Positions 31,151 to 63,700 of a stretch of DNA of 64,000 nt are shown piece by piece. A model generated the notes under the pieces. It ran no database searches. It was not told the DNA's origin and saw only the letters and a list, made by a program, of their open reading frames with translations. The stretch's first letter is position 1. Each line of letters starts with the position of its first letter. The position numbers were made by a program, and so were the translations under genes. Source of the stretch: Escherichia phage T4_ev151; the sequence record LR597660, one strand, 5' to 3'.

Positions 31151-31204
31151 TCCTCATGTTATGTCAGTAAGACTACTATAACACAACACGAGGGACTTGT
31201 AAAC
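31151..31204 (-). promoter_or_regulatory. 54-bp repeat copy B: early promoter plus leader and SD upstream of alc
   Basis: 100% identical to 17518-17571; alc ATG is 5 nt beyond the repeat. Confidence 0.6.
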
Positions 31205-41054: not shown

Positions 41055-41450
41055 CTACTTTTTGAAAGTTTTTCGCAAAAGTTCAATGATTTCATCTACA
41101 TTGTTTTCGTCAACAATGCAGTGAATTTTTGTTACGCCAGAAACTGGGGTCTTATTAATGAAATCTATGGGTTGAAATGATTCTGGAGATACTTCAACAA
41201 AGTATTTGAATTCGTCTTCATATATTTCAAAAAATGAACCCGGTTTGCCGGCAGCATAAAATTTACTGCCGTCTTGCATAGTAACTCCTGTTACGAATGA
41301 TATGTTGTCATCATCAACAACCATATCATTGACAGTAAAACTAGGACCATGAATCTCAATCAAAGATACCATATCAGCATTTTGTGGGCATTCATCAGCA
41401 AAAGTAGCTTTGCATATAGGATTAATGATATAAGTTTTTCCGATTTTCAT
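41055..41450 (-). CDS. hypothetical protein (frd.3 position)
   Basis: 131 aa; ATG verified. Confidence 0.6.
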   Translation of the reverse strand: MKIGKTYIINPICKATFADECPQNADMVSLIEIHGPSFTVNDMVVDDDNISFVTGVTMQDGSKFYAAGKPGSFFEIYEDEFKYFVEVSPESFQPIDFINKTPVSGVTKIHCIVDENNVDEIIELLRKTFKK

Positions 41451-57366: not shown

Positions 57367-58002
57367 TCACAGTTCAGATGCTACAGTGATTACAGCTTCA
57401 ATGTTTTCTGCCGAGCGTTTAATGTCAAGATACACATTACCGTTTTTAGCGATTTTACATGACATTCCGATGTCAGTAAATTTCTGAATATGATGTTCCA
57501 TCATTTTGTATCCAAAAATTCGCATATTTCCATTGTTGTTAATTTCAAAATTACGAATTCCGTGAGTGCGTTTTTCTAAAATAGCGAGATAGTTACTGCG
57601 GTAAGTTTCAACCTTTTTAAGAACAAATCCATTTTCATCTAAAAGTTTTAACATGAGGTCTTTATCTTCTTCCATATCAGAAGTAATCTCACGAGCTTTA
57701 CGAGTTGCTCGTTTTTTCAGTAGTTCCGGAGCATTTTCCTGTGCATATAAAGTTGCTGCATTTGAAATAATATCCTGAGCTTCACCAGTAATGATTAATC
57801 CATCACCAGATTTCTCCACCAGGCCTTTTTTAATCAATACCCCAATATTACTATTAACTACTGCGTTACCTAAATCTGGATGCACCTCACGAACTTCTGC
57901 AGCTGTAATGAAATCTTTCTTAGCAATAGTAATTAAAATCGCAGCAGTTTTTTCATTCAGAACATCGTTAGAAGCTTTGATGATGTAAGTTACTTTAGAC
58001 AT
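57367..58002 (-). CDS. motA: middle-transcription activator MotA
   Basis: 211 aa MSKVTYIIKASNDVLNEKTAAILITIAKKDFITAAEVREVHPDLGNAV... matches recalled T4 MotA. Confidence 0.92.
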   Translation of the reverse strand: MSKVTYIIKASNDVLNEKTAAILITIAKKDFITAAEVREVHPDLGNAVVNSNIGVLIKKGLVEKSGDGLIITGEAQDIISNAATLYAQENAPELLKKRATRKAREITSDMEEDKDLMLKLLDENGFVLKKVETYRSNYLAILEKRTHGIRNFEINNNGNMRIFGYKMMEHHIQKFTDIGMSCKIAKNGNVYLDIKRSAENIEAVITVASEL

Positions 58003-60892: not shown

Positions 60893-61003
60893 TCAAGGAG
60901 TATAAAATCCAAATGCAGTTGTTGACCATCCCATCCAATATGGGAAATTTGCACCAATGTAAAACATAAGAATATAAAACCAACCACTCAGCAAATTCAT
61001 CAT
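60893..61003 (-). CDS. 36-aa hydrophobic micro-protein
   Basis: Hand-translated MMNLLSGWFYILMFYIGANFPYWMGWSTTAFGFYTP; ATG overlaps the upstream stop (ATGA). Confidence 0.4.
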   Translation of the reverse strand: MMNLLSGWFYILMFYIGANFPYWMGWSTTAFGFYTP

Positions 61004-61197
61004 TTTACACCATTCCAAATTGTTTCAACTACGGATTTTAAACCATTCTGATGAATATCCATTCCGACTACCGCCATCAAATAGATTCCAACTACAACTG
61101 AACCTAAGGCAAAAATCAGCATGAAAATGAATAAAGCCGGAAAAATATTATCGAAAAACCATTCAATAAATGTAAAAGCACTGCGTTTACGCTTCAT
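61000..61197 (-). CDS. 65-aa membrane protein
   Basis: Track starts at TTG; ATG at 61197 with GAGGAA SD; MKRKRSAFTFIEWFFDNIFPALFIFMLIFALGSVVVGIYLMAVVGMD... Confidence 0.5.
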   Translation of the reverse strand: MKRKRSAFTFIEWFFDNIFPALFIFMLIFALGSVVVGIYLMAVVGMDIHQNGLKSVVETIWNGVK

Positions 61198-61204
61198 ATT
61201 TTCC

Positions 61205-61318
61205 TCACATAAATCCAAAGTAAACGTTTAATACATCAATCATTAAAACGATTGGGAATATACTCAAAACTATTAGTATTATAACTACATTCCATATAGC
61301 TTTAACAATCTTTTTCAT
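61205..61318 (-). CDS. 37-aa membrane micro-protein
   Basis: ATG at 61318 preceded by GGAGGA; MKKIVKAIWNVVIILIVLSIFPIVLMIDVLNVYFGFM; the longer track ORF (to 61453) would run through a promoter. Confidence 0.45.
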   Translation of the reverse strand: MKKIVKAIWNVVIILIVLSIFPIVLMIDVLNVYFGFM

Positions 61319-61346
61319 TTTGTGTTCCTCCGTAGTTGATAGGGTA

Positions 61347-61376
61347 ATAGTACCACGGAGGAACAGTCTTGTAAAC
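61347..61376 (-). promoter_or_regulatory. early promoter (GTTTAC, 18 nt, TGGTACTAT) with inverted repeat reaching the downstream SD
   Basis: - strand GTTTACAAGACTGTTCCTCCGTGGTACTATTAC; 9-bp arms TTCCTCCGT (61324-61332) and ACGGAGGAA (61356-61364). Confidence 0.5.
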
Positions 61377-61383
61377 AACTTTT

Positions 61384-61482
61384 TTAAAAATATTCGTAAT
61401 AAATGTGAATACCAACTACTACCGCTGAAACCTGTGCAACCCACCATGCACACGCAATAAGTACAGAATTCAAAATTTTCAT
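61384..61482 (-). CDS. 32-aa hydrophobic micro-protein
   Basis: Hand-translated MKILNSVLIACAWWVAQVSAVVVGIHIYYEYF; GAGG SD; ATG overlaps the upstream stop (ATGA). Confidence 0.4.
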   Translation of the reverse strand: MKILNSVLIACAWWVAQVSAVVVGIHIYYEYF

Positions 61483-61565
61483 AATAACCTCATCACAAAA
61501 GTAAATGTTAAACAAATTACTGGAATACTAATTAACCAAACAAAACACCACCATAATGAACTCAT
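61479..61565 (-). CDS. 28-aa hydrophobic micro-protein
   Basis: Hand-translated MSSLWWCFVWLISIPVICLTFTFVMRLL; ATG overlaps the upstream stop (ATGA). Confidence 0.4.
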   Translation of the reverse strand: MSSLWWCFVWLISIPVICLTFTFVMRLL

Positions 61566-61825
61566 AGTTCAATCTCAACGATTTCCAAGTGTTTTTGTTT
61601 TATTGCCTTTTTAACACAATCATGGACTAAATATGACCATGAATCATTATATTCTCCATTAACTAATCGTTGGAGATCTTCACGTGATGATAAGTAAGGT
61701 TGATCTGATTCCCATTTTGATAAAAATACTGCAGTAAAAATATCTCCTTCATCTGTAGTTGAAGTCGTAAATGCAATAAATTCACCGGTAATTTTATGTT
61801 TAGCGTAATAAAATTTAAATTTCAT
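61562..61825 (-). CDS. hypothetical protein
   Basis: ATG at 61825 preceded by GGAGGAG gives ~87 aa MKFKFYYAKHKITGEFIAFTTSTTDEGDIF...; an early promoter lies just upstream. Confidence 0.55.
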   Translation of the reverse strand: MKFKFYYAKHKITGEFIAFTTSTTDEGDIFTAVFLSKWESDQPYLSSREDLQRLVNGEYNDSWSYLVHDCVKKAIKQKHLEIVEIEL

Positions 61826-61898
61826 TTTTACTCCTCCGTAGCTGATAGTTGTATAGTACCACAGTCCTTGTGGTATGTAAACCATTTTGTGAAATTTT

Positions 61899-62456
61899 TT
61901 AAATGGAAAGATACCATCCGTTGTAGTTGCTTTTTCTTACAACCTTACGAAGGTCTTCTCTATCACCGATGAACTTCGGAGTGTACTGGATGACACCTGG
62001 ATGAATTTCTTTAGTGTTGAATATAATTATACAGTCAGCGACTTGATGATTTAGAATGGGCCCTAGATTTATTCCAGAACCATATGGATACTCTCCGCTG
62101 CATCCTGTTGTTACAGAAATCCAACGTGAGTCAGTTTGGTGTGTCTTAACTTCTACACGAAGCCCACAGTATCTTGGATGTGCCAAAACATCCCATGCAT
62201 ATGTGTACGGATCATCGACATCTTCTTGACCTTTATTGACATATCCGCTTAGCCAATCTGCCACAAAAAACTCTGCGTACACAGCGATACGGCATCTTTC
62301 GATAACTTCTGCCTTATCCTGATTTGGGTTTTGTTTTAAAGAGTATCTTGCAGTATCAGCAATTTTGACCTTCATTTCACTAGTCAAGTCACTGTTCGAT
62401 AGGGTAAATGTCGGAATCTGAAATAGTCTCTGCAAACCCGGATTCGTTTTCTGCAT
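61899..62456 (-). CDS. denB: endonuclease IV (DenB)
   Basis: 185 aa (T4 DenB length); position between ndd block and rIIB; ATG verified. Confidence 0.8.
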   Translation of the reverse strand: MQKTNPGLQRLFQIPTFTLSNSDLTSEMKVKIADTARYSLKQNPNQDKAEVIERCRIAVYAEFFVADWLSGYVNKGQEDVDDPYTYAWDVLAHPRYCGLRVEVKTHQTDSRWISVTTGCSGEYPYGSGINLGPILNHQVADCIIIFNTKEIHPGVIQYTPKFIGDREDLRKVVRKSNYNGWYLSI

Positions 62457-62538
62457 TTAAACTTTCCTTTATGTCGGAATCACTGATATTCATATAAATC
62501 ATAATTTCTCTTAAAACAAAAGGGCCGAAGCCCTTATT

Positions 62539-62733: not shown

Positions 62734-62761
62734 AATTTTCCTTAGTTAAGGGCCGAAGCCC

Positions 62762-63700
62762 TTATTTAAATTGTTCAGTAACGTCTTCAACTACTTCGTA
62801 TTGGCAGGTACGCATTTTAGCATCGTTGTAATCAATCGGAATTGATACTACATCGCGAGGATGAACCTTAACTTTTACAACTCGGCTAGTTGAACTGCCA
62901 AAGTGACGAATATAAGATTTAGAACACACATGCAGACCACGAGAACAAGTTTGTGTATCATCGTCATTCACACGAGTACGTGGCATTTTAACTACTTTAC
63001 CCGGACTGTTATCAAAGGTGTTTGAGTGACAGTCAAAGTAATTGCTGCGAACTACTTTCCAAGCATAGAAGTAGCCATCTTCTGTAATTTCAATATCATT
63101 TGCTACCAAGAAATCAAAGAGTCGAGATACCGCTTTTTGGCTTGGGTTTTCCAGCAGATTTTCCAAGAACGGAAAATAAAATTCAAAGTTTTCACCTTTT
63201 TCCATCGAGTCGAGAATACGATCAACCAAACCAGATCGCAATTCAATATTTTGATAGAACAAGCTTTCACCTTCAATTCGAACATCACCGGAAATATATT
63301 TTTCAACAGCGCGACGAACATCAATTTTTTGCGCAGCTTCTTCCAGTTTATCCGCTACAAGCAGATTAAGAATTTCCTGGAAGTTTGAATGAGTATTAGG
63401 AGTTGCGTTATAAGTTACACCGTCAACAGTAATTGAAATGAATTTTTTAGATGCATTCCAAATAATGTCAGATTTAGCAACTGGAGCAATAACTGCATCG
63501 CTATTAACTTTAACTGTAATATCACCGCTAATAGTAACTTTAGAGCGTTTAGCTTCTTCAGCATTTTTCAAAACACGACGGATTGTATCAACCGATACAC
63601 CTTGCCAATCAGCCAATTCCTGTTGGGTGTAATTACCACTTGAATACAGCTTAACAATTTCAGCTTGTTCGTTTTTGGTCAGGCATTTAATATTGTACAT
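62762..63700 (-). CDS. rIIB: rapid-lysis / Rex-exclusion protein RIIB
   Basis: 312 aa (T4 rIIB length); ATG preceded by AAGGAAA; position downstream of rIIA. Confidence 0.9.
   Translation of the reverse strand: MYNIKCLTKNEQAEIVKLYSSGNYTQQELADWQGVSVDTIRRVLKNAEEAKRSKVTISGDITVKVNSDAVIAPVAKSDIIWNASKKFISITVDGVTYNATPNTHSNFQEILNLLVADKLEEAAQKIDVRRAVEKYISGDVRIEGESLFYQNIELRSGLVDRILDSMEKGENFEFYFPFLENLLENPSQKAVSRLFDFLVANDIEITEDGYFYAWKVVRSNYFDCHSNTFDNSPGKVVKMPRTRVNDDDTQTCSRGLHVCSKSYIRHFGSSTSRVVKVKVHPRDVVSIPIDYNDAKMRTCQYEVVEDVTEQFK

Follow-up and report, generated by a model that had tools for sequence, protein, structure and literature searches.

We analysed 64,000 nucleotides (nt) of Escherichia phage T4_ev151 (LR597660; hereafter the window) and found that a homologue of the T4 gene ndd.4 is preceded by an early promoter that lies inside an inverted repeat covering the Shine-Dalgarno (SD) sequence of the gene. 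The best-supported explanation of this arrangement, to which we assign a probability of about 0.6, is that translation of ndd.4 depends on the promoter used. The promoter spacer of the ndd.4 cassette, as RNA, would be complementary to the ndd.4 ribosome-binding site. A polymerase coming from upstream, having started at the rIIB/denB promoters or at a sister early promoter at a distance of 500 nt, would copy both arms of the repeat. This read-through RNA would fold into a hairpin of 14 base pairs (bp) in which GGAGG is buried, so that ribosomes could not start on ndd.4. A polymerase that starts at the embedded promoter, at about 61340 in the loop, would produce RNA with the SD arm only, which would be unstructured and translated. 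The net effect would be that synthesis of the ndd.4 peptide is confined to a short immediate-early burst and is insulated from upstream transcription. T4 early promoters are shut off within minutes and a middle promoter starts inside ndd.4, and the confinement to a burst would follow from these two facts. We computed the repeat, its energetics, its conservation, and the recurrence and covariation of such repeats at other early promoters; the start site of ndd.4, the existence and folding of the read-through RNA in the cell and the effect on translation are predicted from these.

Structure of the ndd.4 leader

On the plus strand, the 9-mers TTCCTCCGT (61325-61333) and ACGGAGGAA (61355-61363) form a perfect inverted repeat. 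An earlier note on this DNA, made from the sequence alone, had described such a 9-nt repeat next to the SD of a 37-amino-acid (aa) open reading frame (ORF). The repeat exists, although it had been placed one base away, and the stem is longer than the nine pairs described, with 14 bp here and 15 bp in T4. The ORF, its GGAGG SD and the promoter hexamers are present as described. The full repeat (61323-61336 and 61352-61365) has arms of 14 nt that make 13 Watson-Crick pairs and one G·U pair around a 15-nt loop. On the plus strand, the single non-Watson-Crick position is A·C, and it becomes G·U only in RNA of the minus strand. The minus-strand RNA hairpin has an energy of -22.4 kcal/mol (z = -6.2), and none of 200 dinucleotide shuffles was as good; the plus-strand fold of the same repeat has z = -2.0. 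Perfect 9-nt inverted repeats with loops of at most 30 nt are not unusual in the window, where 38 are found and about 15 are expected. Stems of 14 bp with at most one G·U are expected 0.27 times per window, both strands together, and the ndd.4 stem is the sole instance. Judged from the sequences, the comparative data described below are stronger evidence against chance than these repeat statistics. A search with Rfam covariance models gave no match at E<=1 in the searched interval, 60900-62100.

We then compared how easily ribosomes would reach the start of ndd.4 in the two transcripts. The opening cost of the translation initiation region (TIR) was defined as the energy needed to free AUG-13 to AUG+2. 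For ndd.4, the computed cost is 17.6 kcal/mol in read-through RNA and 1.1 kcal/mol in promoter-started RNA, and the promoter-started RNA is predicted to be unstructured (0 kcal/mol). This prediction agrees with the proposal of the earlier note that read-through RNA has both arms and a hidden SD, and that promoter-started RNA has the SD arm only. Translation-blocking hairpins have been described for the T4 genes e, 49, I-TevII, segB and soc, and the hairpin of gene e has a 100-fold effect (PMC3014915). In T4, the opening cost is 15.6 kcal/mol for e, 15.4 for segB, 14.8 for gene 49, 13.3 for I-TevII and 8.0 for soc, and it is 16.6 kcal/mol for T4 ndd.4. The read-through cost of ndd.4 equals or tops that of these validated hairpins. 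With a control truncated at a fixed position (-28), some known hairpins, among them those of e and soc, score too low, since their 5' arms sit nearer to AUG, and absolute opening energies were compared instead.

Two other roles of the stem were considered and set aside. For an antisense function of the plus strand, the z-score of the fold is -2.0, the wobble pair becomes A·C, and there is no U-run nearby. Processing by RNase III was judged improbable on stem length; typical RNase III substrates have stems longer than 14 bp.

The embedded early promoter

The promoter matches the T4 early consensus, as GTTTAC-aagactgttcctcc-gtgg-TACTAT, and has an A/T-rich element upstream, as T4 early promoters typically do. 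Its spacer is 18 nt long after GTTTAC, or 17 nt if the -35 element is read as TTTACA; it encloses the whole 5' arm and has TG at -15/-14. The 5' arm ends on the first T of the -10 box. The record of phage SA20RB (OL960581) labels this site 'similar to phage T4 early promoter GTTTAC(N14)gtggTAttaT', by similarity and not by mapping; we take the wording of the consensus from this annotation, which cites Miller et al. 2003. Promoters were called by the T4-specific consensus and strand bias in place of a generic sigma-70 scan, which was uninformative in the window (20 sites, 18.6 expected). GTTTAC[A/T]-N-TAnnnT matches occur 13 times on the early-gene strand of the window and 0 times on the other. 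No TATAAATA late promoter was found in or adjoining the ndd.4 hairpin.

The start site is predicted at about 61340, approximately 7 nt past the -10 box and within the loop. This position is derived from promoter spacing; the searchable literature gave no start-site data for the ndd.4 early promoter. The whole 5' arm (61365-61352) is upstream of the predicted start, so that promoter-started RNA would carry no part of it. The two transcripts may also differ for RegB. This endoribonuclease targets GGAG within the SD of early mRNAs, and secondary structure protects from it; a strong cleavage site is GG*AGRAYARAA, single-stranded and in an early TIR (PMC3014915). The GGAG of the ndd.4 SD is followed by an A-rich tract, and GGAGGAACACA agrees with the RegB consensus GGAGRAYARAA in GGAG and in 4 of the 7 following positions. 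This partial match is predicted to be single-stranded in promoter-started RNA only and buried in read-through RNA.

Recurrence at other early promoters

Our comparison set consisted of 36 GTTTAC-type cassettes that have an SD and ATG downstream, taken from the window and from T4 1-100 kb. They were scored for read-through-specific occlusion of the TIR with a threshold of >=8 kcal/mol. Eleven of the 36 reach the threshold, the distribution is bimodal, and most others are near zero. The eleven are nrdC.8, ndd.4, regB, modB, motB.2, e.8, denV, mrh.2 and the cassettes at window positions 31204, 17571 and 24820. When spacers were swapped between cassettes, the mean number of occluding cases was 3.1 and never exceeded 8 in 20,000 permutations (P<5e-5). 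Eight cassettes, which stand for about six independent sequence families, have an own spacer that comes out first against ~32 unrelated spacers. Among control start sites that are preceded by an SD and lack such a promoter, 4 of 141 reach the threshold (odds ratio 15, Fisher p = 4.6e-6).

Promoter-anchored (spacer) stems also contain imperfect pairs, 11 of which are G·U on the sense RNA and 1 of which is A·C, in a count whose scoring treats G·T and A·C alike. This 11:1 bias points to sense RNA rather than DNA as the paired molecule. It bears on the alternative that the inverted repeat acts as DNA, either by binding a dimeric regulator or by forming a cruciform through which the promoter is modulated. 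The -10 region is at the centre of the repeat, and the shut-off of T4 early promoters is incompletely understood (PMC3014915, PMC2988021), both of which would suit a role as DNA. However, a palindrome should tolerate G·T and A·C equally, and the pairs are biased 11:1 to sense-RNA wobble; the T4 ndd.4 stem alone has three G·U positions, which are A·C on the other strand. Moreover, the arm sequences are wholly different between cassettes, which leaves no common protein site, and the 15-nt loop disfavours cruciform extrusion. A role of the repeat as DNA is therefore very improbable in our view.

Three further occluding cassettes lie in the window. The cassette GTTTACAAGTCCCTCGTGTTGTGTTATAGTAGTCTTACTGACATAACATGAGGA... 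occurs in two copies on the minus strand (31204-31145 and 17571-17510), 13.6 kb apart and with different downstream genes; in both copies, the spacer pairs with the SD/AUG-proximal region over 13-16 bp including G·U. The cassette at 24820-24750 (minus strand) is independent but built like that of ndd.4: its spacer GCUCCUUUGU is complementary to its own SD region ACAAAGGAG, and its arms are unrelated to those of ndd.4.

Conservation of the ndd.4/nrdC.8 cassette

The cassette is repeated, with 3-5 matching places per genome in 561 phage records. A complete cassette with both arms also precedes the unrelated gene nrdC.8 in the same genomes, including T4, and both arms are retained in every intact copy of relatives before these two different genes. 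Compared with the window, T4 ndd.4 has a C to U change in each arm, both of which lead to G·U, and a flanking C to G change that makes the 15th pair. We assembled 13 distinct intact ndd.4/nrdC.8 cassettes from phage genomes, viral contigs and metagenomes by DNA-pattern scans. In this set, 95.9% of cells are paired and eight pairs are invariant; five pairs change on one side only, always to G·U, and only the two outermost pairs are sometimes open. A covariation test within this family was uninformative, as the changes are one-sided only and the shuffle control is degenerate. Among relatives, the hairpin loop is exchanged between two versions (TACCC/ACAAC) while the arms are unchanged. In hybrid cassettes, the spacer is the same but a different leader (...ACTAATACGGATTTGGAGAATAAAATG) follows it, and a stem-breaking G to A change (CCATGG) was found only in hybrid cassettes that lost the 3' arm. 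Taken alone, the ndd.4/nrdC.8 data suggest selection on the stem; they are consistent with it and are not proof of it.

The same family can be read in another way, namely that the repeat is functionless and arose incidentally, as a by-product, when cassettes with GTGGTACTAT...CTATCAACTAC in common recombined, together with a pyrimidine-rich spacer matching any SD. Many cassettes share the motifs that supply the inner 5 bp (GUGGU/ACUAC), exchange between the -10 box and the SD yields hybrids with and without the 3' arm, and the family has no double compensatory change. In addition, shuffling of exactly the ndd.4/ndd.5 region, with exchange between T4 and PST, has been published for the cassette type known as PeSL, for promoter-early stem-loop (PMC4122927, Fig. 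6A legend). Nevertheless, the complementarity reaches 9 bp beyond the shared motifs and past the SD core. The specificity for the own spacer (P<5e-5), the 15-fold enrichment over ordinary start sites, the sense-strand G·U bias of 11:1 and the compensatory covariation in regB and denV/nrdC.8 described below also speak against a by-product. We regard this origin of the repeat as quite unlikely.

Covariation in the regB, nrdC.8 and denV leaders

The early promoter of regB is experimentally known (PMC3014915). Four lineages, with RegB identity as low as 65%, retain the spacer/SD stem of this gene. The stems of the regB lineages (77%, 68% and 65% identity) are UUGACUG/CAGUUAA, UAGUUG/CAACUA, UGUAAG/CUUACA and UUUAUG/CAUAAA, with compensatory changes at six positions outside GGAG. 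These were counted with the arms anchored on GGAG; RNAalifold on a MAFFT alignment shifted T4 by one column and under-counted them. In regB of Karamvirus and Jiaodavirus, an outer helix of the UCUCC/GGAGA type is retained around an inner hairpin, and two genera without a promoter before regB have no hairpin. In each of at least eight genera or lineages, the 3' partner in the regB orthologue is the SD or AUG, and all else varies. A further compensatory change was found between nrdC.8 and denV: the arms of the nrdC.8 68% lineage (AUCUCCAGUAG/CUACUGGAGGU) differ from the homologous arms of T4 denV (UCUCCUGUAG/CUACAGGAGA) by a U-A to A-U swap. Across lineages, the promoter sequence consistently pairs with the ribosome site, which is predicted by promoter-dependent translation and not by a plain terminator or stability hairpin. 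The central idea of the earlier note passes all available computational tests: the architecture is over-represented at early promoters, wobble pairs favour the sense strand, and compensatory changes are present in the regB and nrdC.8/denV cassettes of other genera.

In the regB leaders of two distant phages, the promoter sequence pairs with another part of the initiation region. In Serratia phage WSPA, the start and first codons are paired with the -10 box and the 3' half of the spacer over 13+ bp, and the SD is unpaired. In Aeromonas phage Aes508, the start codon and first codons, rather than the SD, are paired with the -35 region. These leaders follow the same logic with a different target within the initiation region.

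The regB data also bear on the possibility that the stem-loop is a terminator/attenuator or an RNA-end-stabilising part of a PeSL, which stops or trims upstream transcripts, as has been proposed for PeSLs of RB49/phi1, and overlaps the SD only incidentally. PeSL stem-loops are described at various positions in and around the promoter, and with PeSL211/210 of RB49/phi1, a lacZ transcriptional reporter placed downstream fell to the same extent as with rrnB T1 (PMC2839356). The T4 record X04567 labels repeats C/C' (denV) and D/D' (regB) 'pot. transcription terminator', and most early-promoter stems of our data set do not involve the SD. On the other hand, the ndd.4 stem is followed by ACACAAAAUGAAAAAG / CACAAAAUGAAAAAG and not directly by the U-run of an intrinsic terminator, and a terminator scan gave no terminator-like site at this stem on either strand. 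SD-type stems have loops of 15-27 nt, which would be costly if any hairpin sufficed, and termination does not explain why, in at least eight genera or lineages, the conserved partner in the regB leader is the SD/AUG. We therefore consider it unlikely that termination or trimming accounts for the element with the SD overlap being incidental. Termination and SD hiding are not exclusive, because untranslated RNA past a hidden SD would invite Rho.

Several observations weigh against promoter-dependent translation. About two thirds of the early-promoter cassettes have their stem-loop off the SD, inside the spacer or just after -10. The 3' arm lies on the SD in 8 of ~20 strong stems, which is not clearly above the ~30% that a rough, uncomputed estimate gives for random placement between -10 and the start codon. 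The hairpin itself may be selected, and SD overlap may be one way to make a hairpin. Within the ndd.4/nrdC.8 family, the 13 variants show zero double compensatory changes, hybrid cassettes retain the 5' arm without the 3' arm, and the nrdC.8 83% lineage has a post-10 stem in place of the SD stem. Finally, translation of ndd.5 ends 18 nt before the stem, and ribosomes terminating there might open part of it.

At nearly every early promoter, the spacer holds the 5' arm of an inverted repeat. Off-SD stems of 8-14 bp are found at window positions 41055, 27883, 24428, 41795 and 61882 (minus strand) and at T4 positions 57990, 70612(20612), 73939 and 65799. The function of these stems is outside the reach of the translational model.

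Relation to known systems

The T4 late promoters of e, soc, 49, I-TevI and other genes are the classical cases of a promoter within a hairpin that conceals a ribosome-binding site (PMC3014915). As in ndd.4, the promoter is embedded, the 3' arm is the ribosome-binding site, and promoter-proximal RNA lacks the 5' arm; the computed opening costs are 8-15.6 kcal/mol, and the 17.6 kcal/mol of ndd.4 is similar or larger. Unlike these hairpins, ndd.4 has an early sigma-70-type promoter (GTTTAC-N17-TACTAT) instead of the late TATAAATA, and its 5' arm is within the -35/-10 spacer. In our model, its translation would be limited to the first minutes and not delayed until late. The T4 e-type hairpins are experimentally validated, whereas the ndd.4 hairpin is predicted from sequence.

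The ndd.4 cassette also belongs to the PeSL type. A PeSL cassette combines a strong sigma-70-like promoter (TTTACW-N17-TAYWAT in T4/PST) and an A/T-rich stretch upstream of it with a stem-loop, and has an SD and ATG at its 3' end (Arbiol et al. 2010, PMC2839356; Comeau et al. 2014, PMC4122927). The ndd.4 cassette has 88% A+T upstream, TTTACA-17-TACTAT, a stem-loop and GGAGG-8 nt-ATG. Like other PeSLs, it is repeated, has small ORFs of a hyperplastic region on either side and adjoins an indel; the indel at the ndd region is an 87-aa ORF that is absent from T4 and bounded by the sister cassette. Published PeSL stem-loops lie upstream of -35, over -35, between -35/-10, over -10 or just before the start site (PMC2839356), and the SD-containing 3' arm of ndd.4 is not among these positions. 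The published functions of PeSLs are termination/attenuation and recombination (PMC2839356, PMC4122927). SD pairing and translation are unmentioned in these two papers, and the word 'translation' is absent from PMC2839356.

The closest anatomy is found in X04567, a T4 record from 1986 that covers 58.3-65.5 kb. Its repeats C/C' (denV) and D/D' (ORF 61.9 = regB) have an anatomy identical to that of ndd.4: they are imperfect, the -10 box of the downstream gene is in the loop, and the ribosome-binding site is inside the 3' arm. Both score as SD-sequestering in our opening-energy scan. They differ from ndd.4 in that they are at other loci, have unrelated arms, and are labelled only 'put. stem-loop structure; pot. 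transcription terminator' of the upstream gene. Such repeats were annotated as terminators in 1986 and again in 2010. The searchable literature on ndd.4, T4 start-site maps and early-promoter/SD hairpins gave nothing specific, and no statement linking early promoters to translation in this way was found in it; it did not cover the main T4 genome review (Miller et al. 2003), and an earlier statement is possible. The ndd.4 element is an early-promoter variant of a known T4 mechanism, in a known type of cassette whose stem-loops were read earlier as terminators.

The sister cassette and sources of read-through RNA

A sister early-promoter cassette (61882) is 500 nt upstream of the ndd.4 cassette, with no terminator-like site between it and 61376, and is the likely source of read-through RNA into ndd.4. 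The rIIB middle promoters are further upstream (PMC2988021). The sister cassette has the same promoter and CTACGGAGG motif as the ndd.4 cassette. Its spacer AUACCACAAGGACUGUGG, however, is not complementary to its own SD and forms a 7-bp internal hairpin (UACCACA/UGUGGUA). The opening cost of its SD is 2.2 kcal/mol in read-through RNA and 2.1 kcal/mol in promoter-started RNA. The earlier note had extended the same logic to a 54-bp repeat; this fails for the second copy, at 61882-61820, where the SD is equally open in both classes of transcript.

The sister cassette precedes the 87-aa ORF (MKFKFYYAKHKITGEF..., 61562-61825, minus strand), which is present in many relatives and absent from T4. 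At this position, T4 has a short leader module, ACTGATACGGATTTGGAGAATAAAATGAAAATCGCT..., which is also found after other T4 cassettes (27080, 55384) and in hybrid cassettes. From the sequences, this pattern suggests that cassettes mediate shuffling, with the exchange falling between the -10 box and the SD. Further upstream, two G+C-rich tetraloop hairpins were found. The hairpin at 62520-62535 (AAGGGCUUCGGCCCUU), between denB.1 and denB, has flanking U/A runs and is terminator-like on both strands; the hairpin at 62747-62764 (UAAGGGCCGAAGCCCUUA), between rIIB and denB.1, is terminator-like on the plus strand only. They would curb rIIB-initiated RNA that reaches the ndd cassettes.

Gene context

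According to the translated ORFs, the region is a T4-like early block in the order rIIB - denB.1 - denB - ndd.6 - ndd.5 - ndd.4 - ndd.3/2a, continuing with ndd.2 - ndd.1 - ndd - stp - ac - 52. Every gene is on the minus strand, which is the sense strand here. The features of the leader are listed in Table 1. The stop codon of ndd.5 is at 61386-61384, and the hairpin begins 18 nt further downstream. The AUG of ndd.4 is at 61318, 8 nt from GGAGG. From its sequence, ndd.4 appears to be a small membrane-protein gene. A search for loci related to the 65-aa ORF downstream of ndd.4 gave 5 viral contigs only.

Table 1. Features of the ndd.4 leader and its surroundings in the window
Feature	Position	Strand	Basis
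Sister early-promoter cassette before the 87-aa ORF absent from T4	61820..61882	-	repeat, fold, promoter scan, opening cost
ndd.5 homologue, 32 aa, gene upstream of the hairpin	61384..61482	-	ORF list, T4 alignment and annotation
A/T-rich, UP-element-like stretch upstream of -35, 88% A+T	61377..61400	-	sequence; PeSL description in PMC2839356, PMC4122927
-35 element GTTTAC, T4 early-promoter consensus	61371..61376	-	promoter scan; OL960581 annotation
Hairpin 5' arm UGUUCCUCCGUGGU, anti-SD, in promoter spacer	61352..61365	-	repeat search, fold
-10 element TACTAT preceded by TGn (extended -10), in hairpin loop	61347..61352	-	promoter scan
Hairpin loop, 15 nt, with -10 box and predicted transcription start at ~61340	61337..61351	-	fold
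Hairpin 3' arm ACUACGGAGGAACA, contains the ndd.4 SD GGAGG (61331-61327)	61323..61336	-	repeat search, fold
ndd.4 homologue, 37-aa hydrophobic peptide	61205..61318	-	ORF list, T4 alignment and annotation
Pndd.3, MotA-dependent middle promoter, TATAAT box and start site	61271..61283	-	PMC2988021 Table 1, transfer by T4 alignment

In T4, the annotated start of ndd.4 (42 aa; T4 166749-166764) is an ATG made by a T4-specific C-to-T change within the SD (ACTATGGAGG). The window (61318-61336) and most relatives have ACG where T4 has this ATG. Because of this, the conserved start of ndd.4 is probably the downstream ATG, giving a product of 37 aa, and the T4 annotation is probably five codons too long.

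The start site of the middle promoter Pndd.3 is 166702 in T4 (PMC2988021, Table 1), which corresponds to window position 61271 by coordinate transfer through the T4 alignment and lies within the ndd.4 ORF. In the region 61271-61300 (minus strand), TATAAT is found at 61283-61278, with a MotA-box-like AAAGCTATA upstream of it. Therefore, middle-mode transcripts skip the ndd.4 start, and ndd.4 is expressible solely from its own early promoter or from read-through RNA.

With a 1.1-kb query, 502 Tequatrovirus-type phage records were obtained, with identity up to 98.4%; in phage EC128, the 121 nt surrounding the ndd.4 element are identical to the window. Two records labelled as Pseudomonas phages, PV654520.1 (vB_PSGBLB0006) and OR584013.1 (PsgM02F), contain near-identical T4-type sequence, with 98% identity across 1.1 kb and RegB 99.3% identical. 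This suggests that their hosts are mislabelled or that the records contain coliphage contamination.

Implications

A broader proposal, which we put forward tentatively and hold to be possible rather than probable, is that about one third of T4-type early promoters are self-insulating cassettes whose spacer doubles as an anti-SD. The first gene of such a cassette would be translated from its own promoter only and would be silent on read-through RNA, and the naked read-through RNA would naturally give access to Rho or nucleases. As promoter, anti-SD and SD move as one unit, transcriptional and translational control would be portable during gene shuffling between phages. If this is true, entry of Rho or nucleases could explain both the 'terminator/attenuator' activity of PeSLs and the long-debated boundary between immediate-early and delayed-early T4 genes, which depends on Rho and on translation. 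If promoter-dependent translation of these genes is right, hidden ribosome sites, Rho polarity and the immediate-early/delayed-early distinction would be connected by a concrete link that can be tested. As a practical use, the cassette would be a compact (~60 bp) natural part that makes a gene answer only to its own promoter. Stem-loops that have been labelled as terminators for 40 years would be reinterpreted, and PeSL cassettes would gain a translational function. T4-like phages would time and insulate many of their first-minute genes by a choice of promoter that is read at the ribosome-binding site. Such control would add to promoter strength and RegB cleavage, and it would be the mirror image of the lysozyme (gene e) paradigm.

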